From Thermodesulfobacteriota bacterium (GTDB taxonomy: Bacteria; Desulfobacterota; QYQD01): DNA of 28,259 bases. Where the stretch lies: the NCBI GenBank assembly GCA_030017815.1, contig JASEGX010000002.1:1-28259 (forward strand). The letters run 5' to 3'. Positions 12,042 to 25,785 of this stretch are shown here, piece after piece. The number at the start of each line of letters is the position of its first letter. Position 1 is the first letter of the stretch. The position numbers and the translations under genes are program-made. The notes under the pieces were generated by a model that did not search any database, was not told where the DNA came from, and saw only the letters and a program-made list of their open reading frames with translations.

Positions 12042-13235
12042 ATGATCGGTATATCTAAACTTTATTGCGGTACGGTGGAGCCGTCTGACGCCTTGCGTTA
12101 TGGCAGACACTCCGGGAAGTTGCCCTCGCACCTTCTCCAGTTTTCGGCAGACAAAAAGCCGGTGGTGGTCTGGAATGCCACCCGGCGTTGTAACCTAAAG
12201 TGTGTGCATTGTTATGCCCAGGCGGACAGTGTGGGCGCACCGGATGAACTCTCCACGGCCGAAGGGAAAAAACTGATCGATGATCTAAGCCAGTTCGGCA
12301 GTCCGGTCCTTCTTTTCTCCGGCGGCGAGCCTTTTATGCGTCCGGATCTGCCTGAGCTTGCGGCTTACGCCGTGGAAAAAGGCATGCGGGCCGTAGTTTC
12401 TACAAACGGCACGCTTATCGGCAAAGACATGGCCAAGGTATTGAAGAAGATCGGCCTCTCTTATGTGGGTATAAGTCTTGATGGTATGGAAGAGGTCAAT
12501 GACCATTTTCGTGGGGTTAAGGGGGCCTTTGCCGGGGCCATGAGGGGTATTAGAAATTGTCGGGAAGCTGGTATTAAGGTAGGGTTAAGGTTTACCATAA
12601 ATAAACTTAATGCCGCCGAGATACCGGCCATTTTTGACCTGTTAGAACGGGAAGAAGTCCCGCGGATCTGTTTTTATCATCTGGTTTATGCGGGCCGGGG
12701 CAGTAAGCTGGTCGAAGAAGATCTTGCTCACGAAGAAACCCGGCGGGTAGTGGATATTATCATCGATCGTACTGCCGACTTGCACCGTCGAGGTAAGCCC
12801 AAAGAGGTGCTGACGGTGGACAATCATGCCGACGGGCCTTATGTCTATCTGCGTATGGTAAAGGAGAATTCACCCCGGGCTGCCGAGGTCCTGGAATTAC
12901 TTGAAATGAACGAGGGGAATAACTCCGGCCGGGGTATCGGCTGTGTAAGCTGGGACGGGAGCGTCCATGCGGATCAATTCTGGAGGCATTACTCATTTGG
13001 CAATGTCCGCCAACGTCCGTTTAGCGAGATCTGGACGGACTTATCCAATCCGCTTATGGCGGCCCTTAAGAATAAGAAGGCCCATGTCAATGGCCGCTGT
13101 GCCCGGTGTAAGTGGCTGGATATCTGCGCCGGTAATTTCCGGGTAAGGGCTGAGGCCGTCACCGGGGATATCTGGGCGCCGGACCCGGCTTGTTATCTGA
13201 CGGATAAAGAAATCGGGATTGCCGAGGAGGCTTAG
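12042..13235 (+). CDS. ahbC: Radical SAM 12,18-didecarboxysiroheme deacetylase (Fe-coproporphyrin III synthase)
   Basis: [23 protein letters not shown]-terminus, [13 protein letters not shown] cysteines, position upstream of hemB. Confidence 0.92.
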
Positions 13236-13237
13236 AG

Positions 13238-14212
13238 ATGCTGTTTCCGGATTATCGTCCGCGCCGCATGCGGCAGAATGAAAATTTCCGCGCCCTGATT
13301 CGGGAGACACAGCTTGCGCCTGATCAGCTTGTTTATCCCCTTTTTGTCGTGCTGGGGAAAAAGGTCAGGAAAGAGATCCCTTCTATGCCCGGGTGTTTTC
13401 AACTTTCTCTGGATCAGTTGAAGGCTGAGATAAAAGAGATAAAGGACACCGGGCTCAGATCTGTTCTCCTTTTTGGCATCCCGGAAAAGAAGGACGAGAT
13501 AGCCTCTCGGGCCTATGCCAAAGATGGCATTGTGCAAAGGGCGATAGCCGAGATAAAGTCATCTGATAAAGACCTTCTGGTTATTACGGATGTCTGTCTC
13601 TGTGAATACATGAGTCACGGCCACTGTGGATTTGTCTCCGGGGGCAAGATCGAAAATGATGCGACACTGGAGATACTGGGCAGGGTAGCCCTTTCCCATG
13701 CCCGGGCCGGGGCGGACATGGTTGCCCCTTCGGATATGATGGACGGCCGGGTGGCTGAGATCCGTGAGACCCTGGACGAAGATGGTTTTGAACACACACC
13801 CATCATGTCTTACGCGGTCAAGTACGCCTCCGGTTTTTACGGGCCTTTCCGCGAGGCGGCGGAGTGTGCCCCCCAGTTCGGCGACCGGCGTTCGTATCAG
13901 ATGGACCCCGCCAACAGCCGTGAGGCCCTGCGCGAGGCCACCCTGGACATGGAGGAAGGGGCTGACATCCTCATGGTTAAACCGGCCCTGCCTTATCTGG
14001 ATATCATCTCTCGCTTGCGGGAGGAATTTGACCATCCCATTGCCGCTTATCAGGTCAGCGGCGAGTATGCCATGGTAAAGGCGGCGGCCAAGATGGGCTG
14101 GCTGGATGAAGAGCGGGTCATGATGGAATGCCTTCTGAGTATCCGGAGGGCCGGAGCAGATATTATCATCACTTATTATGCCAAGGAGGCAGCGAGGTTA
14201 TTGCGCAGATGA
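13238..14212 (+). CDS. hemB: Porphobilinogen synthase (Zn type)
   Basis: [19 protein letters not shown] Zn motif, [26 protein letters not shown]. Confidence 0.97.
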
Positions 14213-15351
14213 AACCGAATCATCCTCATGGCCATCCTTCACATCCTTCCCATGCCCATAGTGGTCCTCCACAGGGGCAGGACGGACCGACGCTTCGCCT
14301 GGTAGCCTGGGAATTGACAAGGAACTGTAACCTTTCCTGTGTTCACTGTCGGGCATCCGCAACCCGTGGACCTTATGAAAACGAACTATCCACGGAAGAG
14401 TGCAAGAAGATTATCGACGACATCGCTGCCCATGCCCAGCCGGTCATGATCATGACCGGTGGTGAGCCTCTCCTGCGCGAGGATATCTTTGAACTGGCGC
14501 GCTATGGTACAGACAAAGGCCTGCGGATGGTGATGGCCACCAACGGCACCCTCATCACCCCGGAAGTGGCCCGGAAAATGGTAGAGGCCGGAGTAAAGAG
14601 GATTAGTATAAGCATTGACGGGGCCACAGCAGAAAGCCATGACAAATTCCGTCAGGTAGAAGGGGCCTTTAAGGGCGCGCTTCAAGGCATAGAAGAGGCG
14701 AAGCAGGCCGGTTTAGAGTTTCAGATTAATACCACGATTACTGAGACGAACCTCCATGAACTCCCGGCTATACAGGAGCTCACCGTATCACTCGGGGCGG
14801 TGGCTCACCACATCTTCCTCCTGGTCCCTACCGGACGCGGCAAAGATTTGGCCGCTCAGGCCCTTTCTGCCGGGGAATACGAACAAACCCTGAACTGGTT
14901 TTATGACCAAAGGGATAAAGTCCCCCTACACCTCAAGGCCACCTGTGCCCCTCACTATTATCGGATATTAAGACAGCGGGCCAAGGCTGAGGGGAAAGAG
15001 ATAACCTTCCAGTCCCACGGGCTGGATGCCGTGACCCGGGGATGCCTGGGCGGTGTCGGCTTCTGTTTTGTCTCACATCGGGGAGATGTCCAGCCTTGCG
15101 GTTATTTAGAGATAAACTGCGGCTCGGTGCGCGAGATGCCCCTTTCCCGTATCTGGCGTGAATCTCCTGTCTTTCTTAACTTGCGTAATCCCAAGATGTA
15201 CAAAGGCAAGTGCGGTATGTGTGAATATCATCGTTTCTGTGGCGGGTGCCGGGCGCGGGCCCATGAGATGTCCGGTGATTATCTGGCCGAGGAACCTCTC
15301 TGTACATATCAACCTTTAAAAATGCGGGCGCCGGCGAAGGAAAGTCATTAG
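14209..15351 (+). CDS. ahbD: Radical SAM AdoMet-dependent heme b synthase
   Basis: [48 protein letters not shown]; ATG 14209 overlaps the hemB stop (ATGA). Confidence 0.92.
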
Positions 15352-15378
15352 CTTTCAGCTATCAGTCATCAGTCACTA
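15351..15378 (-). repeat. Four degenerate heptamers of the AGCTGA(A/T) family, reverse orientation
   Basis: GCTTTCA GCTATCA GTCATCA GTCACTA immediately after the ahbD stop. Confidence 0.55.
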
Positions 15379-15429
15379 ACCGTCGGGTGTCAATCGCTCA
15401 AGTCCGTTTTGAATTTTGGACTTTGACCG

Positions 15430-15888
15430 TTGGGATTTAACAAAATGGATGCTACAGACCGGGCCATTTTAAACGAGATACAATCCCATTTTCCGATTGA
15501 ATCTCGCCCCTATGCGACTATAGGAGAGCGGCTCCAACTCACGGAGACAGAAGTTTTAGACCGGATTAGGCGTTTGCAGGATAGGGGTATAATACGCCGT
15601 CTGGGGGCGAATTTTGATTCCCGCCGCCTGGGTTATATGACTACTCTCTGCGGGGCCAAGGTCCCACCGGAAAAATTAGAGGAATTTGTGGAGGTCGTAA
15701 ACTCTTATCAGGGAGTGACCCATAACTACTTACGCAGACACGCCTTCAATGTCTGGTTTACCTTTATCGCCGGGTCGGAAGAGGCCATCGAGAGGCAACT
15801 GCAGGAGATAACTGAAAAGACCGGCGTTAAGGTCTACAACTTTCCCGCCATACGTTTATTCAAGATCAGGGCTGAGTTTAAGGTCTGA
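15430..15888 (+). CDS. ahbA: Siroheme decarboxylase alpha subunit (Lrp/AsnC-like)
   Basis: DRAILNEIQSHFP, IIRRLGANFDSRRLG, GVTHNYLR, NVWFTFIA; context next to ahbC/ahbD. The start may be the ATG five codons downstream. Confidence 0.88.
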   Translation: MGFNKMDATDRAILNEIQSHFPIESRPYATIGERLQLTETEVLDRIRRLQDRGIIRRLGANFDSRRLGYMTTLCGAKVPPEKLEEFVEVVNSYQGVTHNYLRRHAFNVWFTFIAGSEEAIERQLQEITEKTGVKVYNFPAIRLFKIRAEFKV

Positions 15889-17600: not shown

Positions 17601-17830
17601 TGATGAATTTGTCACACCGGTGAAGCTCGGAGCTATGTAGGGTAGGCTCAGCTCACAAAAACTACGCTACGTCAGCAATGATGGTGGGCAAAGCCCACCC
17701 TACGTTTGTCATTCCGTGCCTGACACGGAATCCAGAGCCCAAGCCGCGAAAGAAAAACCTGGATTCCCGTTCCCCGATCGTGGTCGAGGACAAGTTTCAC
17801 GGGAATGACGACTTGTTACGAGTTCATCAA
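17600..17830. mobile_element. 231-bp composite MITE-like element with TTGATGAA ends
   Basis: Inverted ends TTGATGAATTTGT / ACGAGTTCATCAA (11/13); contains a GTAG REP pair and two GTCATTCC/GGAATGAC hairpins. Confidence 0.7.
17637..17703. repeat. Inverted GTAG-REP doublet nested in the element
   Basis: GTAGGGTAGGCTCAGCTCAC ... GGTGGGCAAAGCCCACCCTAC. Confidence 0.75.
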
Positions 17831-17862
17831 TTATAGTAGATGGAAATCAGGAGGTAGGATCC

Positions 17863-19113
17863 ATTAGCACACCCTCATGCAATAAGTGCGGGACGTGCAT
17901 GAGTGTCTGTCCCGTTTACCAGGCAACAGGGCTGGAGGCCTATTCCCCCCGGGGCAAATTAAGCCTTATCGAGGCCAACCGGGAAGGCCGGTTACCGTTT
18001 TCCGACCGCTTTGAAGAATTGCTCTCCTACTGTCTTCTTTGCGGGGCCTGTACGAATGCCTGTCCCGCCGGGGTAAATGCGGATGTCTCCATACAGGAAG
18101 CGCGGGCAAGGTTGGTCGAAGAGAAGGGACTCCCGGCGGGGAAGCGATACTTTTTTCATTACCTTCTGGATTCTGAGCGCCTTTTGCCCTTTATATTAAA
18201 AAGCGGTTCCCTGATCCAGGGCCTCCTTTGCAAAAGAATCCCGGAAGACAGCGGCCTTCATTGTCGATTTCCGATCCCTCTGTTGGCCGGAAGGTCATGG
18301 CTGCCGCCATTGGCGCCGACCTTTTTTCTGGATAATGACCTGCCCCAGGAAACAAGCGCCCCGGCTAAGGCAGCTTACTTTACAGGATGCATCACAAATT
18401 ATCTCTTTCCTAACGTAGGTAAGGCTGTCCTGAATATTTTTGACTTTCTCGGAGAGCCTGTATGGGCGCCCAAGAAGCAGAAATGCTGTGGGTTCCCGGC
18501 CTTTTGTGCCGGGGATGAAGAGACGGCGCGTTCCCTGGCACGGGCCAATATCTCGGCATTCCTGGATGGCCGGTTCGATTACATCGTTACGACCTGTGCC
18601 TCCTGCAGCTCCCATCTAAGATTTAATTATCCCAGGCTTCTGGCCGCCGACCCGGTCTTTGCAGAAAAAGCGGCGGAATTTTCGGCAAAAGTGATGGATA
18701 TATCGGTTTTTTTATCCCATAACAAGGGATTTCCCCGGCAGTTATCGGATCTCACGCCGAAAACCGGCAGCCTGAAGGTGACGTATCATGATCCCTGCCA
18801 TTTTCGGTTTAGAGAAAAGATATTCGAGGAGCCGCGTCTGCTCATCAAGTCGCTGCCCGGAGTTGATTTTCGCGAACCGGCCGGCGGAGCTGCGTGTTGC
18901 GGACATGGCGGGTTGTTTAATATAACCCATTATGACCTGTCCCAGGAGATTCTTGATAAAAGGATGGCTGTGTTAAGAGACACGGGAGCAGATATCTTAG
19001 TTACCAGTTGCATGGGCTGTCTGTTACAGTGGAAGGAGGGTCTGGTTAGGCATGGGCTTAATGCACAGGCCATGCATCTGGTAGAGTTATTCGATATTTT
19101 TTTGTCAAAATGA
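17863..19113 (+). CDS. GlcF/GlpC-like (Fe-S)-binding oxidoreductase subunit, 2x[4Fe-4S] plus two CCG domains
   Basis: CNKCGTCMSVCP (starts upstream of ATG 17899), CLLCGACTNACP, CCGFP, YHDPCH, CCGHGG. Start placed at ATT 17863 after AGGAGG. Confidence 0.85.
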   Translation: MSTPSCNKCGTCMSVCPVYQATGLEAYSPRGKLSLIEANREGRLPFSDRFEELLSYCLLCGACTNACPAGVNADVSIQEARARLVEEKGLPAGKRYFFHYLLDSERLLPFILKSGSLIQGLLCKRIPEDSGLHCRFPIPLLAGRSWLPPLAPTFFLDNDLPQETSAPAKAAYFTGCITNYLFPNVGKAVLNIFDFLGEPVWAPKKQKCCGFPAFCAGDEETARSLARANISAFLDGRFDYIVTTCASCSSHLRFNYPRLLAADPVFAEKAAEFSAKVMDISVFLSHNKGFPRQLSDLTPKTGSLKVTYHDPCHFRFREKIFEEPRLLIKSLPGVDFREPAGGAACCGHGGLFNITHYDLSQEILDKRMAVLRDTGADILVTSCMGCLLQWKEGLVRHGLNAQAMHLVELFDIFLSK

Positions 19114-19455: not shown

Positions 19456-19836
19456 ATGAAAAACAGGGGCATTCTGCTGATGATAGTCATGGCTGTTTTT
19501 ATAATAGCTACTTGTGCTTACGCCCAGGAAGAAGTGCTGAAACTGGAGCATAAGGCCTTTGAAAAACGACAGAGGCCGGGCGTGACATTCCAGCATGCCC
19601 AACACTTTGCTACCATTGAGTGTACGGCGTGCCATCATTTTTATGTAAACGGACAGAACGTCTGGGATGAGTCGCGGGAAACGAATTGTGCGGCCTGCCA
19701 TGGCTTGGAGGCCGAAGGTAAGAAAATGGGCCTTATGAAGGCGTTTCACGAGAACTGCGTGGGTTGTCACCGGGAGACCAAACCGGCAGCAGGCAAGTCA
19801 CTCCCGGTGATGTGTGGCGAATGCCACAAAAAATAA
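19456..19836 (+). CDS. Periplasmic tetraheme cytochrome c3 (class III)
   Basis: Sec signal peptide (AYA|QEE), four CxxCH (CTACH, CAACH, CVGCH, CGECH), VTFQHAQH and KAFH distal His motifs; AGGAGG RBS. Confidence 0.92.
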   Translation: MKNRGILLMIVMAVFIIATCAYAQEEVLKLEHKAFEKRQRPGVTFQHAQHFATIECTACHHFYVNGQNVWDESRETNCAACHGLEAEGKKMGLMKAFHENCVGCHRETKPAAGKSLPVMCGECHKK

Positions 19837-19971: not shown

Positions 19972-21267
19972 ATGAGCCCAGGTAGCTTTTCTGGCGGTAT
20001 TTGCTTGTCTATTTCAGACGCAAGCGCAAACAAACCCTTCGAACGTATCATCCCCTCCGGTGTTGTAACTATCCCTCTCAGGCAGGATCTCGGCGGAATT
20101 TGCAATGCCAAGGTCAAAAAGGGTGATGAGGTCAAGGTCGGACAGGTAATCGGTGAAAGCGCCGGTCCGGAAGGCGCCTCTATCCATGCCACGGTTTCCG
20201 GTAAAGTAGCCGATGTAATAAAGGCCTATCCCCATTTTTCAGGGGGATTCGTCCCGGCTGTGCTCATAGAATCCGATGGCAAGGATGAGTGGGTGGGACT
20301 GGAGGGCAGCGCAGACCCAATGGCCGCCATACAACAGGCGGGAATTATTGATTTTGATATAAAGCCGGTACCGCTTGCAGCCAAGCTCAACGAGGCAAAG
20401 TCTCGCCGGGCTAACGCCCTTATTGTGAATGCCATGGACATAGAGCCGGTACTCTCGAGCCGGTCACGTCTGTTGTCTGAAAGGGTTCAGGAAGTGGCCT
20501 GCGGGATAGACACTATAAAAAGCATAATCGGCGCAGCATCGGTGTATGTTGCCGTCGATAAAGGTGCGTCTCAGGCTATGTCCGCTGTCGGTTCCGCCTG
20601 CGGTGGCGCGGCTACCGTAGTGGGGTTGAACCCTAAGTATCCCCAGGCTGTTGACCTCTTACTGGTAAAGTCGATACTGGGTAAGGAGGTGCCCTGTACA
20701 GAGGCCTATTGTGTGGCCGATATAGGCGCCCTGGTCCTGAGTGTCGAGACAGTGGCGGCGGTGGGCCGGGCTATGGCGGATAAAAAGCCGGTGGTGGACA
20801 GGTTCATAACCATTACCGGCGCCAACGGGACCGGCGCCAAAAATGTCCAGGTAAGGATAGGCACGACGATTAAGGAAGTTCTGGGGCATTGTGGAATTTC
20901 CGTGGAAGGGATGGGCAAGGTTATAGCCGGCGGCCCCATGATGGGCACGGCCATCGCCAATACCGAGACGCCGGTGACCAAAGAGGTGCTGGGTATCTTT
21001 GTCCAGCATGAGAAAGAGATTACCGGGTTCGACTCGGCTGTCTGTATCAAATGCGGGTTATGTATCGAGGTGTGTCCGGTAGGCCTGATGCCGTTCCTTA
21101 TTTCCGGCTTTTCGGAAAAAGGGGTATATGCCAAGGCTGCGGCCAACGATATATTTACATGCTTTGAATGTGGATGCTGTGTCTACGTGTGCCCGGTAAT
21201 GATACCAATGGTGCACTGGATAAAATTTGGCAAGGCACAAATTATGGCGCAAAGGAGTAGCGAATGA
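19972..21267 (+). CDS. rnfC: RnfC-like subunit with degenerate FMN/NAD motifs
   Basis: FSGGI, VKKGDEVKVGQVIG..IHATVSGKV, KYPQ, GGPMMG, CIKCGLCIEVCP and CFECGCCVYVCP. Confidence 0.9.
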   Translation: MSPGSFSGGICLSISDASANKPFERIIPSGVVTIPLRQDLGGICNAKVKKGDEVKVGQVIGESAGPEGASIHATVSGKVADVIKAYPHFSGGFVPAVLIESDGKDEWVGLEGSADPMAAIQQAGIIDFDIKPVPLAAKLNEAKSRRANALIVNAMDIEPVLSSRSRLLSERVQEVACGIDTIKSIIGAASVYVAVDKGASQAMSAVGSACGGAATVVGLNPKYPQAVDLLLVKSILGKEVPCTEAYCVADIGALVLSVETVAAVGRAMADKKPVVDRFITITGANGTGAKNVQVRIGTTIKEVLGHCGISVEGMGKVIAGGPMMGTAIANTETPVTKEVLGIFVQHEKEITGFDSAVCIKCGLCIEVCPVGLMPFLISGFSEKGVYAKAAANDIFTCFECGCCVYVCPVMIPMVHWIKFGKAQIMAQRSSE

Positions 21268-22232
21268 AAGCCCCGGAACTTGTCGTATCTGCTACGCCGC
21301 ATATCCATAGCGGCAACTCCGTTCAAAAGATGATGCTGAACATAATCATCGCCCTGATCCCGGCGATAGCTGCGGGGGTATATTTTTATGGTATGGGCGC
21401 GGTGCGGGTTGTCGCTGTCTCAGTGCTCTCAGCCGTGGCCTGGCAGGCTATCTTACAAAAGATGATGGGGAGGAAGGTTACCATCAATGACCTGACCGCT
21501 GTGGTAAGTGGTCTCGTCTTGGCTGCCATCCTTTCGCCCACGCTGCCGTGGTGGATGATCGTGATCGCTACCTTGATTATGATCCTTCTTGGGAAAGAGA
21601 TTTACGGCGGGCTGGGCTGTAACCCGTTTAACGGTGTCTTGGTGGCTTACGTGGCATTAAGGTTGTCTTATCCGGAGGCCATGATTGCCTGGACGCCGCC
21701 GGCCGGTGATATAATGACCGAGCTGCCCCCCCTCCAGGTCTTGAGGGATGAAGGGGTCGGGGTTATCTGGGAATACTTTACTTTGAAAGACCTGCTCATT
21801 GGTAAGGTAGCCGGTACCGCAGGTGAAGGGTGCAAGATCGCTCTTCTGATAGGAGGTCTTTTCCTCCTCTTGAGGCGTAACTTTTCCTGGCATATTCCGG
21901 TCAGCTTTCTGGCAGGTATCGCAATCCTCTCAGGGATTCTGTGGCTGGCTGATCCAGAGAAATATGCCAGTCCGGTCTTTCATCTCCTGGTTGGCGGTAG
22001 TTTCCTGGCGGCCTTTTTTCTGGCTACCGATTCCACTACCTCACCGGTTACACCAATTGCTATGGTACTATATGGATTGATAGCCGGAATGCTTACGGTG
22101 GTTATACGGGCCTGGGCCCAATGGGAGGATGGGGCCTACTTTGCGGTCCTTATGATCAGTACATTAACTCCGCTTTTAGATATGATCAAACCAAGAGTCT
22201 ATGGGAGGGTGAAGGCCAGTGCAAGTTCGTGA
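21264..22232 (+). CDS. rnfD: RnfD subunit, FMN-attachment Thr apparently absent
   Basis: SATPHIH, GKEIYGGLGCNPFN, AAFFLATDSTTSP; hydrophobic, about 10 TM. Confidence 0.92.
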   Translation: MKAPELVVSATPHIHSGNSVQKMMLNIIIALIPAIAAGVYFYGMGAVRVVAVSVLSAVAWQAILQKMMGRKVTINDLTAVVSGLVLAAILSPTLPWWMIVIATLIMILLGKEIYGGLGCNPFNGVLVAYVALRLSYPEAMIAWTPPAGDIMTELPPLQVLRDEGVGVIWEYFTLKDLLIGKVAGTAGEGCKIALLIGGLFLLLRRNFSWHIPVSFLAGIAILSGILWLADPEKYASPVFHLLVGGSFLAAFFLATDSTTSPVTPIAMVLYGLIAGMLTVVIRAWAQWEDGAYFAVLMISTLTPLLDMIKPRVYGRVKASASS

Positions 22233-22806
22233 AATCATTAAGATGATTGTGGTTTTGACGCTCATTGCCGCTGTCTGCGGAGGGGGACTGTCGCTTGTCA
22301 AACTAGCTACAGCGGAACAAATTGCCTATCAGCAGATAAAATTCATCAAGGAGCCTGCCTTGAAGAAGGTGCTCACCGGTTATGACAATGACCCCGTCAC
22401 AGACCGGAAGGACATCGTAACCGGCAAGGACAAGAAGGGTAAGGACGTAGTAACCACCTTCTTTTTTGCCAAAAAAGGTGGTCAGGTTATCACCGTTGCC
22501 TTTGAAGCCAGCGCTACCGGATTTCATGGCGATATCGGCGTAATGATGGCCGTTAACCCTGAGATTGACAAGCTGGATGGAATAGCCATTACCTCCCAGT
22601 CCGAGACGCCGGGTGTGGGCACCAGGGTAGCGGATGACCCATCCTTCTGCGCCCAGTTCAAGGACAAGTCCTTAACGGCTAATTTCAGCCTTGGGGGCGA
22701 GGTTCAGGGGCTGAGCGGGGCTACGGTATCCTCGGCCGGTGTAAGCAACGCGGTAAAGGCTGGTGTGGAGACTTACAAGAAATATAAATCCCAGTTGGGC
22801 GTATAA
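22219..22806 (+). CDS. rnfG: RnfG subunit (covalent FMN)
   Basis: N-terminal TM, GFHGDIGVMMAV, ETPGVG, LSGATVSS FMN motif. Confidence 0.92.
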   Translation: MQVREIIKMIVVLTLIAAVCGGGLSLVKLATAEQIAYQQIKFIKEPALKKVLTGYDNDPVTDRKDIVTGKDKKGKDVVTTFFFAKKGGQVITVAFEASATGFHGDIGVMMAVNPEIDKLDGIAITSQSETPGVGTRVADDPSFCAQFKDKSLTANFSLGGEVQGLSGATVSSAGVSNAVKAGVETYKKYKSQLGV

Positions 22807-22823
22807 AATTGAGGAGGTTTGTA

Positions 22824-23429
22824 ATGGCGCGCATTGTCAGTGAATTCACCAAGGGCCTCTGGAAGGAGATCCCTCCCTTCCGTTTCGTCCTCGGCCTGTG
22901 TTCGGCTCTGGCTGTGACTACGGACGTGGCCAATGGTCTAGGTCTGGGGGGCGGGGTCATTTTTGTGACCACCATGGGGAACGTCTTTGTCTCCATGCTG
23001 CGCAAGATTATACCGGATAAGGTGAGGATAGCGGTCTTTATTGCCATCATTGCCAGCGCGGTCATCATAGTGGAGCTGGTGATGCAGGCCTATTTCTATC
23101 CGCTTTTCCTGGTGCTCGGTATCTGGATACCCCTTATCGTAGTTAACTGAGTGCCTCTGGGACGGGCGGAGGCCTTCGCCCGCAAAGAGCCGGTCGGGCT
23201 CTCTTTAGCTGATGGATTAGGAATGGGGTTAGGATTTACCATATCATTGGTTGTGGTATCGACCATTCGGGAGATACTGGGTAAGGGTTCCTGGTTCGGG
23301 ATTCCGGTTATGCCGGTGGGTTATCCGGGCATGCCGTACCTTCTTAAGCCGCCGGGGGCCTTTGCCTTGTTGGGCCTGCTGCTCGGCATTATGAACTTTA
23401 TTTCCTTAAAGCTGGAAGCCAAGAAGTAG
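22824..23429 (+). CDS. rnfE: RnfE subunit, 201 aa with in-frame TGA at codon 109 (predicted selenocysteine)
   Basis: ORFs 22809-23150 and 23151-23429 are in frame and join as IPLIVVN-[TGA]-VPLGRAEAFA; LGLCSALAVTT, DGLGMGLGFT, PPGAF; GAGGAGG RBS before ATG 22824. Confidence 0.88.
23151..23190 (+). ncRNA. Candidate bacterial SECIS element (cis-acting mRNA hairpin)
   Basis: 7-bp stem GGGCGGA/TTCGCCC (23164-23181) with GGCC loop; loop starts 20 nt after the UGA and begins with G; possible lower stem CTCT/AGAG. Confidence 0.7.
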
Positions 23430-23450
23430 GAAGAAGGGGGAAGAGAGATT

Positions 23451-24029
23451 ATGCAACAAGACTGGTTCATGTTTATCCTGTCGGCTATTATCGTTAACAA
23501 CATCCTCCTGATAAGGTTCCTGGGAAACTGTCCCTTCCTGGGGGTTACCACGGCCATGGACAGCGCCCTCGGCATGTCCGCGGCCTGTATTTTTGTGAAT
23601 GTTCTTTCCGGCGTTCTCTGCTGGATATTTCAGAAGGCGGTACTGGATACCCTGGGTCTGGAATACCTGCAGACGCTGGCCTTTATTCTGATCATTGCCG
23701 GCCTGGTCCAGTTCGTGGAGATGGTGGTTCAGAAGGTATCACCGGCGCTTTACCGGGCCCTGGGTATCTACCTGCCGCTTATAACCACCAACTGCATGAT
23801 CTTTGGCGTGGCCGTGTTAAACATCCGGGAGGATCATGATTTTATACATACAGTTGTTTATTCTCTGGCCACCGCCCTTGGGTTTAGTCTGGCTATGGTG
23901 ATCATGGCCGGTATCCGGGAAAGGATGCTCATTGCCAGGATACCCAAGCTTCTGGATGGGGTACCACTGGGTTTAATCACGGCCGGCATGATAGGTCTTA
24001 CCTTTTATGCCTTGGCCGGCATATCTTAA
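23451..24029 (+). CDS. rnfA: RnfA subunit
   Basis: NNILLIRFLGNCPFLG, ALGIYLPLITTNCMIFG, MAGIRER; both cluster cysteines present. Confidence 0.95.
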   Translation: MQQDWFMFILSAIIVNNILLIRFLGNCPFLGVTTAMDSALGMSAACIFVNVLSGVLCWIFQKAVLDTLGLEYLQTLAFILIIAGLVQFVEMVVQKVSPALYRALGIYLPLITTNCMIFGVAVLNIREDHDFIHTVVYSLATALGFSLAMVIMAGIRERMLIARIPKLLDGVPLGLITAGMIGLTFYALAGIS

Positions 24030-24053
24030 ATATGGACGGCAGGTGAGGTTTAT

Positions 24054-24860
24054 ATGGGACCGATAATCACAGCAGTGGCGGCTATGGGGGCCTTAGGATT
24101 GGGGCTGAGCGTTGTGCTTGGTGTGGCCAGTAAGGTTTTTTACGTCTATGTTGACCCGCGCATTACCCAAGTAGCCGACGTGCTGCCGGGCGCCAATTGT
24201 GGCGGCTGCGGCTACGCCGGTTGTAGCGACTGTGCGGCGGCTATGGTGGAAGGCAAAGCGCCGGTTAACGCCTGCAAGGCTGGCGGGGCCTCGGTGGCCC
24301 AGGCAGTAGCCGGTGTGCTGGGTGTCTCGGCCGTGGCGGCAGAGCGCGAGGTGGCCAGGATCTTCTGTAAAGGTGACAATACCAGGGCCGAAAGAAAGTT
24401 CCAATACATGGGTATTAATGATTGCCGGGCTGCCATGCTGGTCTCCAGCGGTGACAAATCGTGTGGTTACGGGTGCCTGGGGCTTGGCACCTGCGTAGCC
24501 AATTGTCCGTTTGGGGCCCTTAGCATGGGTGAAGATGGCCTGCCCAGGGTAGATGATGAAAAATGTACGGCTTGCGGGACATGTGTTAAGGTTTGCCCGC
24601 GGCATATTCCCCGGGTGATCCCAGTATCGCAGAAAGCGGCCAGCCTGTGCAGCTCGCATGATGTTGGTAAGCTGGTCAAGGAGATCTGTGAGGCCGGCTG
24701 TCTGGGATGCGGCTTGTGTAAAAAGGCGTGTCCGGAAAAGGCGATTGAGGTGGTGAAGTTTCTTTCCGTTGTAGATACTGCCAAGTGCAATGGTTGCGGG
24801 AAGTGCTTTGAGAAATGCCCGACCGGCATTATGCAGAGCTTGGTTTTCACTGTAGTATAA
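24054..24860 (+). CDS. rnfB: RnfB subunit (polyferredoxin)
   Basis: LPGANCGGCGYAGC, GCLGLGTCVANCPF, CTACGTCVKVCP, CLGCGLCKKACP, CNGCGKCFEKCP. Confidence 0.95.
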   Translation: MGPIITAVAAMGALGLGLSVVLGVASKVFYVYVDPRITQVADVLPGANCGGCGYAGCSDCAAAMVEGKAPVNACKAGGASVAQAVAGVLGVSAVAAEREVARIFCKGDNTRAERKFQYMGINDCRAAMLVSSGDKSCGYGCLGLGTCVANCPFGALSMGEDGLPRVDDEKCTACGTCVKVCPRHIPRVIPVSQKAASLCSSHDVGKLVKEICEAGCLGCGLCKKACPEKAIEVVKFLSVVDTAKCNGCGKCFEKCPTGIMQSLVFTVV

Positions 24861-24871
24861 GGAGGCGTTGA

Positions 24872-25348
24872 ATGTCTCAAAAGATATTGATAGCTATGGA
24901 TGAGTCTGAGAATTCGATGAAGGCGGTGCGGTATGTGGCTGACACCGTGAACCCAAAGGCCGTAGAGGTAACCCTGTTCAGTGTGCTTCCGGAGGCTCCC
25001 GGCACTGGCCTGGAAAAGGAACCCTCGCTGCATCCCGTATTTGCCAGTAAGATGCTGGAGTTAAAGGGGCTGACGGAAGAGAAGCGTAAGATAATGGAAT
25101 CCGTTACGGCTTCGGCCAGGAAAATTCTGGAGAAAGCAGGGATCCCGGGCGATAAAATAAGCATTAATATCCAGGTAAAGAAGGTCGGTATAGCCAGGGA
25201 CATTATGTTTGAGGCCCAGGAAGGAAAGTATAATGCCATAGTTGTCGGGCGAAGGGGTGTTTCTGCAATAAAGGAATTTATGTTCGGTAGCATTTCGAAC
25301 AAGGTGGTAAGCTTTGCACGAAACTGTACGGTCTGGGTTGTGGATTGA
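24872..25348 (+). CDS. Universal stress protein (single domain)
   Basis: KILIAMDESENS, IVVGRRGVSAIKEFMFGSISNKVV. Confidence 0.9.
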   Translation: MSQKILIAMDESENSMKAVRYVADTVNPKAVEVTLFSVLPEAPGTGLEKEPSLHPVFASKMLELKGLTEEKRKIMESVTASARKILEKAGIPGDKISINIQVKKVGIARDIMFEAQEGKYNAIVVGRRGVSAIKEFMFGSISNKVVSFARNCTVWVVD

Positions 25349-25350
25349 GG

Positions 25351-25785
25351 ATGGCCCATATCCGCGAAGAAGAAGGGGAAGTAATTGCCGTTGAAGGCAA
25401 CCAGGCTAAGGTTAGGATCAGACGCAGCCCGGCCTGTGACAGTTGTTCAAGCAGCAGCAGTTGTGGTTTACTTGGTAAAGGTGAGATGGTGCTAACTGCA
25501 TTAAATCCAATAGGGGCTTCGGAAGGGCAAAAGGTGGACGTTTCGTTCAAGGTTGAGGGAGGGGTCAAGGCCTCTTTTATTCTGTACCTAATTCCCGTGG
25601 TTGGCCTGGTAGCAGGGGCATTAATCGGCTATAGCTTGCATTTATTTGGTGATAAGGAGATTTCAGCGGCCGTCTTTAGTCTGTTGTTTGTGGCGCTTAC
25701 TTTTCTTGGCATCAAATATTATGCGCACATCAGATATGCCAAGGATCAATCTTACATCCCAAAGATTACAAAGGTAGTGGCTTAA
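25351..25785 (+). CDS. rseC: RseC/MucC family membrane protein
   Basis: EGEVIAV..AKV, CDSCSSSSSCG, GQKVDV, ILYLIP, two C-terminal TM helices. Confidence 0.85.
   Translation: MAHIREEEGEVIAVEGNQAKVRIRRSPACDSCSSSSSCGLLGKGEMVLTALNPIGASEGQKVDVSFKVEGGVKASFILYLIPVVGLVAGALIGYSLHLFGDKEISAAVFSLLFVALTFLGIKYYAHIRYAKDQSYIPKITKVVA

Follow-up and report, generated by a model that had tools for sequence, protein, structure and literature searches.

An Rnf gene cluster from a Thermodesulfobacteriota bacterium in which RnfD lacks the flavin-attachment threonine and RnfC the NADH site

The stretch of DNA analysed here, referred to as the window, is 28,259 nucleotides long and represents an entire contig (JASEGX010000002.1, positions 1 to 28,259) of a Thermodesulfobacteriota bacterium of the sulfate-reducer type (GCA_030017815.1), whose assembly is a fragmented metagenome-assembled genome (MAG) of 278 contigs, 90% complete. 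It encodes a six-subunit Rnf complex, with all six genes in a single cluster on the forward strand in the order rnfCDGEAB (19972–24860). The first of these, rnfC (19972–21267), has Pfam matches to RnfC_N, Complex1_51K and Fer4, and its flavin mononucleotide (FMN) and reduced nicotinamide adenine dinucleotide (NADH) site is gone. It is followed by rnfD (21264–22232), an intact gene of 322 codons whose product matches PF03116 over the full length, by rnfG (22219–22806) with an FMN_bind domain (6.2e-15), and by rnfE (22824–23429), rnfA (23451–24029; Rnf-Nqr, 6.5e-53) and rnfB (24054–24860), which is of the small form (268 amino acids), with FeS and 4Fe-4S domains and no NAD(P) module. A tetrahaem cytochrome c3 gene (19456–19836; Cytochrom_CIII, 9.2e-15) is situated 133 bp 5′ of rnfC, and its product has four CxxCH motifs and an N-terminal hydrophobic leader (signal peptide) ending in AYA; a c3 gene occupies the corresponding place in six related genomes. 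Immediately 3′ of rnfB are usp and rseC/mucC-family genes (24872–25785), identified by Pfam (Usp, 6.4e-17; RseC_MucC, 4.9e-31) and by synteny, and this is the order seen in most of the clade described below. All of these genes are on the forward strand. The feature of interest is a loop in RnfD in which the threonine that carries FMN in other RnfD proteins is replaced by proline.

The loop reads D-I-M-T-E-L-P-P-L (residues D149–L157; 21708–21734) and is a degenerate form of the flavinylation motif D-x-x-[ST]-x-A-T-P-L. In a HMMER alignment to chains of known structure, GDIMTELPPL lies opposite TDTVTTATPL of Acetobacterium woodii (9eri_D) and LDGVTTATPL of Clostridium tetanomorphum (7zc6_D), and Pro155 (CCC, 21726–21728) falls under the last threonine of each, T156 and T153 respectively, these being the residues to which FMN is covalently attached by a phosphoester in A. 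woodii (PMC11889175) and C. tetanomorphum (PMC9588780). An earlier note, made from the sequence of the window alone, had drawn attention to the loop, to Pro155, to Leu154 in place of the usual alanine before the acceptor, and to the intact SGAT flavinylation site of RnfG (22714–22725), and had recommended an alignment with homologous RnfD proteins. Its coordinates and residues are all correct, and the alignment puts Pro155 in the FMN-threonine column, where threonine or serine is usual. Threonine or serine occupies this column in 132 of the 151 closest representatives of clusters at 50% identity (117 of them preceded by alanine), and 15 of the remaining 19 have an aromatic or hydrophobic residue at the position of R130 in solved RnfD proteins. 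By this comparison threonine is normal at the FMN column, and the proteins without it form a minority that can be defined.

The protein is a member of the NqrB/RnfD family with the ten-helix fold (324 bits to PF03116, profile positions 2–296). An AlphaFold model built with 103 homologues has a mean predicted local distance difference test value (pLDDT) of 89.9, and of about 91 over residues 151–160, and it superposes on the RnfD chains of 8AHX (A. vinelandii), 9ERI and 7ZC6 with template modelling (TM) scores of 0.85–0.89 at 34–36% identity. Because the model is confident and superposes on solved RnfD, both the fold and the position of the loop are predicted to be the usual ones. A scan of the whole protein found no other string of the form D-x-x-[ST]-x-[AS]-[ST] or [ST]GA[TS]. 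We considered whether a second, canonical Rnf or Nqr might supply the lost function and rejected this, as the window's rnfD is the only PF03116 match in the genome, and the one other NuoF-like gene is not an RnfC.

The same residues are present in related genomes, reading GDIMTELPPL in four genomes of the same genus and GDLMTEFPPL in two of a sister genus. In the window the Pro155 codon is within a run of seven Cs, and a base error in this run had been raised as a caveat. However, the two prolines are encoded by CCT CCG in one related genome and by CCT CCT in two, so that the run is interrupted in three of the six, and it is not needed for proline, since these three relatives encode Pro-Pro without it. 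Logan contigs from four metagenomes in four studies, which represent relatives sharing at most 0.35 of sampled words and are not raw reads of the source sample, have no insertion or deletion at the site, no A at 21726, and only synonymous C>T differences at 21728 and 21731. The pairwise ratio of nonsynonymous to synonymous substitution rates (dN/dS) for rnfD against the genus is 0.08–0.09, at dS of 0.7–1.0. With these other codons, the indel-free contigs of the relatives and the low dN/dS the caveat lapses: Pro155 is not a sequencing or assembly error, and rnfD is not a dying gene.

The RnfC subunit has departed from its canonical counterparts too. Relative to 8ahx_C and 9eri_C, GxGGAxFPT has become DFDIKPVPL and NGAECEPYLTADHR has become NAMDIEPVLSSRSR, and neither of the NuoF-type FMN/NADH motifs (GxGGAxFPT and ECEPY) is present, their places being taken by DFDIKPVPL and MDIEPV. 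The protein does score 71 bits against the Complex1_51K profile and keeps two CxxCxxCxxxC motifs for [4Fe-4S] clusters. RnfB has only FeS and Fer4 domains, and none of the six subunits has a recognisable NAD(P) site. In RnfG, a [ST]GAT or AAT string ending in threonine is kept in nearly all of the proteins aligned. An ApbE family search of the 90%-complete, 278-contig assembly returned no match. In five of five close relatives, however, apbE is about 6 kb downstream of rnfD on the opposite strand, and by synteny its place would be about 100 nt past the contig end at 28259. We therefore do not accept that the organism is without ApbE; the absence is best read as an effect of the assembly edge, and ApbE is still needed for RnfG.

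A further departure is in rnfE, which has an in-frame TGA (23148–23150) at the codon for the conserved cysteine in VNC..LGR, a residue that helps to coordinate the [2Fe-2S] cluster of RnfA/E. The gene is split at the matching position in the four same-genus genomes and unbroken in the sister genus, and a hydrogenase large-subunit match elsewhere in the genome likewise has an in-frame TGA. Selenocysteine is probable at this position.

We called the rnf genes in 80 named loci and in another 18 loci from genomes of the same phylum, and constructed an RnfD tree of 95 sequences by a quick IQ-TREE search, with Shimodaira–Hasegawa-like approximate likelihood ratio test (SH-aLRT) supports only. The window falls within a clade of 86 rows (SH-aLRT 98), mostly from Thermodesulfobacteriota. 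In every member of this clade the GxGGAxFPT loop and ECEPY motif of RnfC are unrecognisable or deleted, whereas all full-length RnfC proteins keep both [4Fe-4S] motifs, and almost all members retain the [ST]GAT-type site of RnfG. In seven canonical operons of the window's phylum, RnfD has the D-x-x-[ST]-x-A-T-P-L loop and RnfC has both of its motifs. A complete flavinylation motif is kept in only three RnfD proteins of the 86-row clade; within the 33-row subclade (support 100) that includes the window, D-x-x-T-x-A-T is complete in only three sequences. The FMN column of this subclade has proline in 16, threonine in eight, alanine in six and serine in three, which are the four residues that NCN codons specify, and a minimum of nine changes among them is required on the tree. 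All 33 are already without the RnfC NAD site, and the simplest reading, assuming a root on the canonical operons, is that the RnfC site was lost first and that the RnfD threonine, no longer constrained, was then replaced several times. Tyrosine is the commonest residue at the acceptor column in the sister (Tol2-type) clades (33 of 53). The threonine-less RnfD is, on these comparisons, an inherited trait under purifying selection in a large Rnf clade and not a private defect.

The subclade of the window has small RnfB proteins of 270–300 amino acids. In most other members of the clade RnfB is about 700 amino acids long and includes an NAD(P)-binding module, and a gene for a cytochrome c of 4 to 10 haems is situated directly upstream. 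A cytochrome gene of this kind immediately precedes rnfC in seven of seven operons from the family of the window and in none of the seven canonical ones; among the 53 other threonine-less operons it does so in at least 29. We also looked for an extra redox gene conserved upstream of rnfC across the whole 33-row subclade and discarded the idea, as the neighbours are heterogeneous (e.g. an Mrp/Nuo-type antiporter subunit, a transporter, TetR and ApbE). Two operons of the subclade with threonine at the RnfD FMN position, one of them with the complete motif, have a Proton_antipo_M (Mrp/Nuo-type antiporter-like) gene directly upstream of rnfC (L057:231–1946 and L058:4653–6380). In the Tol2-type branches the long RnfB is fused to a GltD-like module (Fer4_20, Pyr_redox_2 and NAD_binding_8), for example in Pseudodesulfovibrio indicus (L130:10843–12945) and at about 40 other loci, and in these branches RnfB has apparently taken over the NAD(P)H site from RnfC.

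The FMN pocket of RnfD is altered well beyond the attachment site. In C. tetanomorphum RnfD the FMN is surrounded by N90, R130, E185, G237 and S284, and N124 and D248 are at the riboflavin (PMC9588780). The corresponding FMN-side residues in the window are I89, Y129, E188, G245 and Y292, three of the five being replaced (N90 by I89, R130 by Y129 and S284 by Y292), and the riboflavin ligands are kept as N123 and D256. Replacement of either riboflavin ligand (N123A or D249A) inactivates the A. woodii Rnf (PMC11889175). The five FMN-side columns read N, R, E, G and S/A in the canonical operons and L/I, W/Y, E/Q, G and Y/F in the 33-row subclade; other threonine-less clades have A/T/S for the glutamate, Y/N/W for the glycine and tyrosine for the acceptor threonine, with D248 kept almost everywhere. 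All 33 members of the window's subclade retain N123 and D256, the two riboflavin ligands, and the aspartate is present in 51 of the 53 others. Judged from these columns, the entire FMN pocket has been remodelled, whereas the residues that bind riboflavin have been retained. Compared with canonical RnfD (7ZC6, 9ERI and 8AHX) the window is thus alike in family, fold, six-gene operon and the asparagine and aspartate riboflavin ligands, and unlike it in having proline for the acceptor threonine, leucine for the preceding alanine, Y/Y/I for R130/S284/N90, and a partner RnfC with no FMN/NADH site.

ApbE recognises D-x-x-[S/T]-G-A-[S/T], and replacing the acceptor threonine (Thr to Ala) abolishes flavinylation in the targets tested (PMC12052999). 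The window loop D-I-M-T-E-L-P does not conform to this motif. In the homologous NqrB, the T236Y substitution results in a complex with wild-type-like structure in which the FMN is missing and electron flow is disrupted (PMC12901251). We infer strongly that the RnfD of the window is without covalent FMN. This part of the earlier note's interpretation is well supported, with the acceptor replaced by proline, the preceding alanine by leucine, and no other motif in the protein. The note had gone on to propose that the RnfG-to-RnfD step of a canonical Rnf is broken here, and this is not supported, as the change is genus- and clade-wide, under purifying selection, coupled to loss of the RnfC site, and accompanied by a remodelled pocket. 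Because a selected, clade-wide trait always occurs together with loss of the RnfC FMN/NADH site and with other pocket changes, the RnfG-to-RnfD step has probably been given up rather than damaged, and the complex rewired.

The only relative with genetic data is Oleidesulfovibrio alaskensis G20, whose Rnf locus (Dde_0580–0587) has the order dhcA-rnfCDGEAB-apbE-usp, matching the published order. It resembles the window in having a cytochrome c gene, rnfCDGEAB, a small RnfB and usp downstream, an RnfD (P0250) without the threonine, an RnfC without the FMN loop (deleted in G20), and SGAT in RnfG. It differs in belonging to another subclade of the threonine-less clade, in having no trace of the motif in the RnfD loop, in encoding the decahaem DhcA as its cytochrome, in having apbE directly after rnfB, and in having no in-frame TGA in rnfE. 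To grow with sulfate on H2, formate, ethanol, malate and fumarate, G20 requires its Rnf, which also has a part in the membrane potential (PMC4215793, PMC4841214). Since this genetically required complex belongs to the clade, the threonine-less Rnf type is a working enzyme.

Several other systems share some of these features. The 'Rnf2' of the Desulfobacula toluolica Tol2 type (Desulfobacteraceae; PMC5109826) is similar to the window in that its RnfC has no NADH-binding domains and its gene cluster also encodes a small cytochrome c, and the Tol2-type operons in our sample are also without the RnfD threonine; its RnfB, though, has about 700 amino acids and an NAD(P)-binding module, and the 268-residue RnfB of the window is not of this kind. 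The authors of that study commented that another RnfC partner must exist, and RnfD is not mentioned (PMC5109826). The Vibrio cholerae Na+-NQR mutant NqrB-T236Y (9UD3, 9UD4) has the homologous threonine replaced, lacks the FMN and has a wild-type-like structure, but it is engineered and inactive, whereas the replacement in the window arose in nature, is under selection and comes with further changes. Two-subunit Nqr/Rnf-like complexes (Meheust 2021; Huang 2024, PMC10979944) pair an NqrB/RnfD-like subunit without the flavinylation threonine with a flavinylated RnfG-like subunit; they consist of just two subunits, the RnfD-like one with an NAD-binding domain at its C terminus, whereas the window has all six. 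In Methanosarcina acetivorans, as in the window, the first gene of the operon encodes a cytochrome c (there MmcA), and its Rnf works without NAD, as is likely for that of the window; it is different in being archaeal, with cofactor sites, including that of RnfD, reported as conserved, and with methanophenazine as acceptor. The literature on two-subunit complexes (PMC10979944) shows the threonine as conserved in RnfD, as do reviews and structure papers (e.g. PMC9588780), and a literature search found no report of its loss in a six-subunit Rnf or in G20. The RnfC and RnfB traits of the Tol2-type Rnf2 and the threonine loss in two-subunit complexes are therefore already published, and the RnfD trait in six-subunit Rnf was not found in the literature. 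With its small RnfB, absence of an NAD(P) site, tetrahaem c3 and probable selenocysteine in RnfE, the form in the window is from its gene content a variant beside Rnf2, closest in architecture to the G20 operon.

How electrons might move through such a complex is suggested by what has been lost and what is kept. With the RnfD FMN and the RnfC FMN/NADH pocket gone, the usual return path from RnfG-FMN through RnfD-FMN, riboflavin and RnfC to NAD+ has lost its first flavin and its NAD end. We regard it as fairly probable that the complex is rewired as ferredoxin to RnfB to RnfA/E to RnfG-FMN to periplasmic cytochrome c. Ferredoxin would pass its electrons to the small RnfB, and the [2Fe-2S] cluster of RnfA/E, which in this case probably has selenocysteine among its ligands, would carry them across the membrane to the FMN that ApbE attaches to RnfG in the periplasm. 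From there they would exit to the periplasmic cytochrome c pool, for which the operon's own tetrahaem c3 would be the first candidate acceptor. RnfD and RnfC would be retained mainly as scaffold. Flow in the opposite direction could occur as well, the ion gradient then driving electrons onto ferredoxin from c3 that H2 or formate has reduced. Four c3-family genes, several [NiFe]/[NiFeSe] hydrogenase genes and dsrD are present in the genome, so that a pool of c3 in the periplasm is to be expected. In A. woodii, pumping has been proposed to occur at RnfA/E (PMC11889175), and if ion translocation does sit there, a path ending at RnfG could still conserve energy. A broader proposition is that the 'Rnf' of sulfate reducers and their relatives, G20 included, is not a ferredoxin:NAD+ enzyme but an ion-translocating oxidoreductase between ferredoxin and periplasmic cytochrome c, with electron transfer confined to the RnfB to RnfA/E to RnfG half. 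We put this forward tentatively, and it may well not apply so widely.

There are several points that weigh against this route. The cytochrome acceptor is suggested by gene order, and within the 33-row subclade a c3-type gene is directly upstream of rnfC only in the window's family; one further operon of the subclade has a 2-haem open reading frame, 769 bp upstream of rnfC. The co-transcribed decahaem DhcA is dispensable in nearly all G20 fitness assays (PMC4215793). The [4Fe-4S] motifs of RnfC and the riboflavin ligands of RnfD are kept across the clade, and because of this some electron traffic through RnfD and RnfC may persist. RnfD may also hold a non-covalent flavin.

The most substantial alternative to the RnfG-to-cytochrome route, which we view as possible but on the whole unlikely, is that the RnfD/RnfC path is altered and not abandoned. 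Riboflavin, perhaps with a non-covalent flavin, would be kept, or the RnfG-FMN would reach further in, and the RnfC clusters would deliver electrons to a cytoplasmic partner other than NAD, such as the RseC-family protein or a CCG-domain, HdrD-like protein (see below). This would account for the persistence of both cluster motifs in all full-length RnfC proteins of a clade that is diverse and very old, even though the NAD pocket has decayed or been deleted, and for the riboflavin ligands, whose counterparts are essential in A. woodii. It is also consistent with rseC following most threonine-less operons and none of the seven canonical ones, with the CCG-domain Fe-S gene upstream in the window's family, and with the call for another RnfC partner in the Tol2-type Rnf (PMC5109826); a swinging RnfG-like FMN has been proposed in the literature for the two-subunit Nqr/Rnf-like complexes. 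However, without the RnfD FMN the gap between RnfG-FMN and riboflavin grows by about the length of a flavin beyond the 5 Å and 7.7 Å steps of the solved complex (PMC9588780), and the pocket is lined by bulkier or hydrophobic residues instead of R130, S284 and N90. The NqrB-T236Y substitution blocks electron flow (PMC12901251), no partner gene is conserved across the subclade, and the CCG-domain gene here lacks a start codon (ATG, GTG or TTG) 5′ of the first cluster motif.

That the complex is still the ferredoxin:NAD+ oxidoreductase it is annotated as, with flavin and NAD sites diverged past recognition, seems very unlikely. The gene order is the full rnfCDGEAB, RnfC scores on Complex1_51K, and the G20 literature treats the complex as ferredoxin:NAD+ (PMC4215793, PMC4841214), but for sulfate reducers this assignment is based on homology; both NuoF-type signatures are gone from RnfC, with the FMN loop deleted outright in G20, and so are the acceptor threonine and pocket residues of RnfD. 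Still more improbable is attachment of FMN to another RnfD residue, e.g. Thr152 or Thr144. Relatives do possess ApbE, and Thr152 is three positions N-terminal to the normal attachment residue, but it is preceded by D-I-M and not by small residues, neither form of the flavinylation string occurs anywhere in RnfD, and the acceptor column wanders among P, T, A and S, with at least nine changes in 33 sequences, as an unconstrained site would. An artefact in the seven-C run or a decaying pseudogene can be dismissed, even though homopolymer runs are error-prone and the genome is a fragmented MAG, given the same residues by different codons in relatives, indel-free independent contigs, an intact frame, purifying selection (dN/dS as above), and a confident, RnfD-like predicted fold.

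The single substitution is ordinary for the clade; it is the clade-level trait that is at odds with the textbook function given to Rnf in sulfate reducers. Energy models of these organisms draw Rnf as a ferredoxin:NAD+ pump. The sequences point to a branch, including G20, with neither the RnfC NAD site nor the RnfD flavin, and the partner and the energy balance in such models may be wrong. The clade is in effect a natural counterpart of NqrB-T236Y that assembles, is selected and is needed in vivo, and it makes testable the disputed question of whether ion translocation in Rnf and Nqr proceeds via RnfD/NqrB or via RnfA/E. If the rewired path is correct, any ion pumping without the RnfD FMN would place Rnf/Nqr pumping in RnfA/E, independent of RnfD redox chemistry. 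For annotation, matches to 'RnfD' and 'RnfC' in Thermodesulfobacteriota should not be taken to imply ferredoxin:NAD+ activity or two ApbE targets.

Three other features of the window are worth describing. The RseC/MucC-family membrane protein gene (25345–25785) that follows usp is found likewise in most threonine-less operons (including loci L054–L088) and in none of the seven canonical operons sampled. In Escherichia coli, RseC is linked to Rsx in SoxR reduction, and the RseC-family protein may be an accessory subunit of the threonine-less Rnf type. Upstream of the c3 gene is a gene for a CCG-domain Fe-S protein (17809–19113; HdrD/GlcF-like, with two [4Fe-4S] motifs and two CCG domains) at a position conserved in the genus. 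No ATG, GTG or TTG precedes its first cluster motif, and the first listed start, 17899, is inside the motif; the gene may be 5′-truncated or have a rare start. Further to the left, the interval 12042–15888 contains a cluster of two radical-SAM/SPASM genes, hemB (ALAD) and a NirD/L-like AsnC-type regulator. It looks like part of the alternative, sirohaem-dependent route of haem biosynthesis, which is typical of sulfate reducers.

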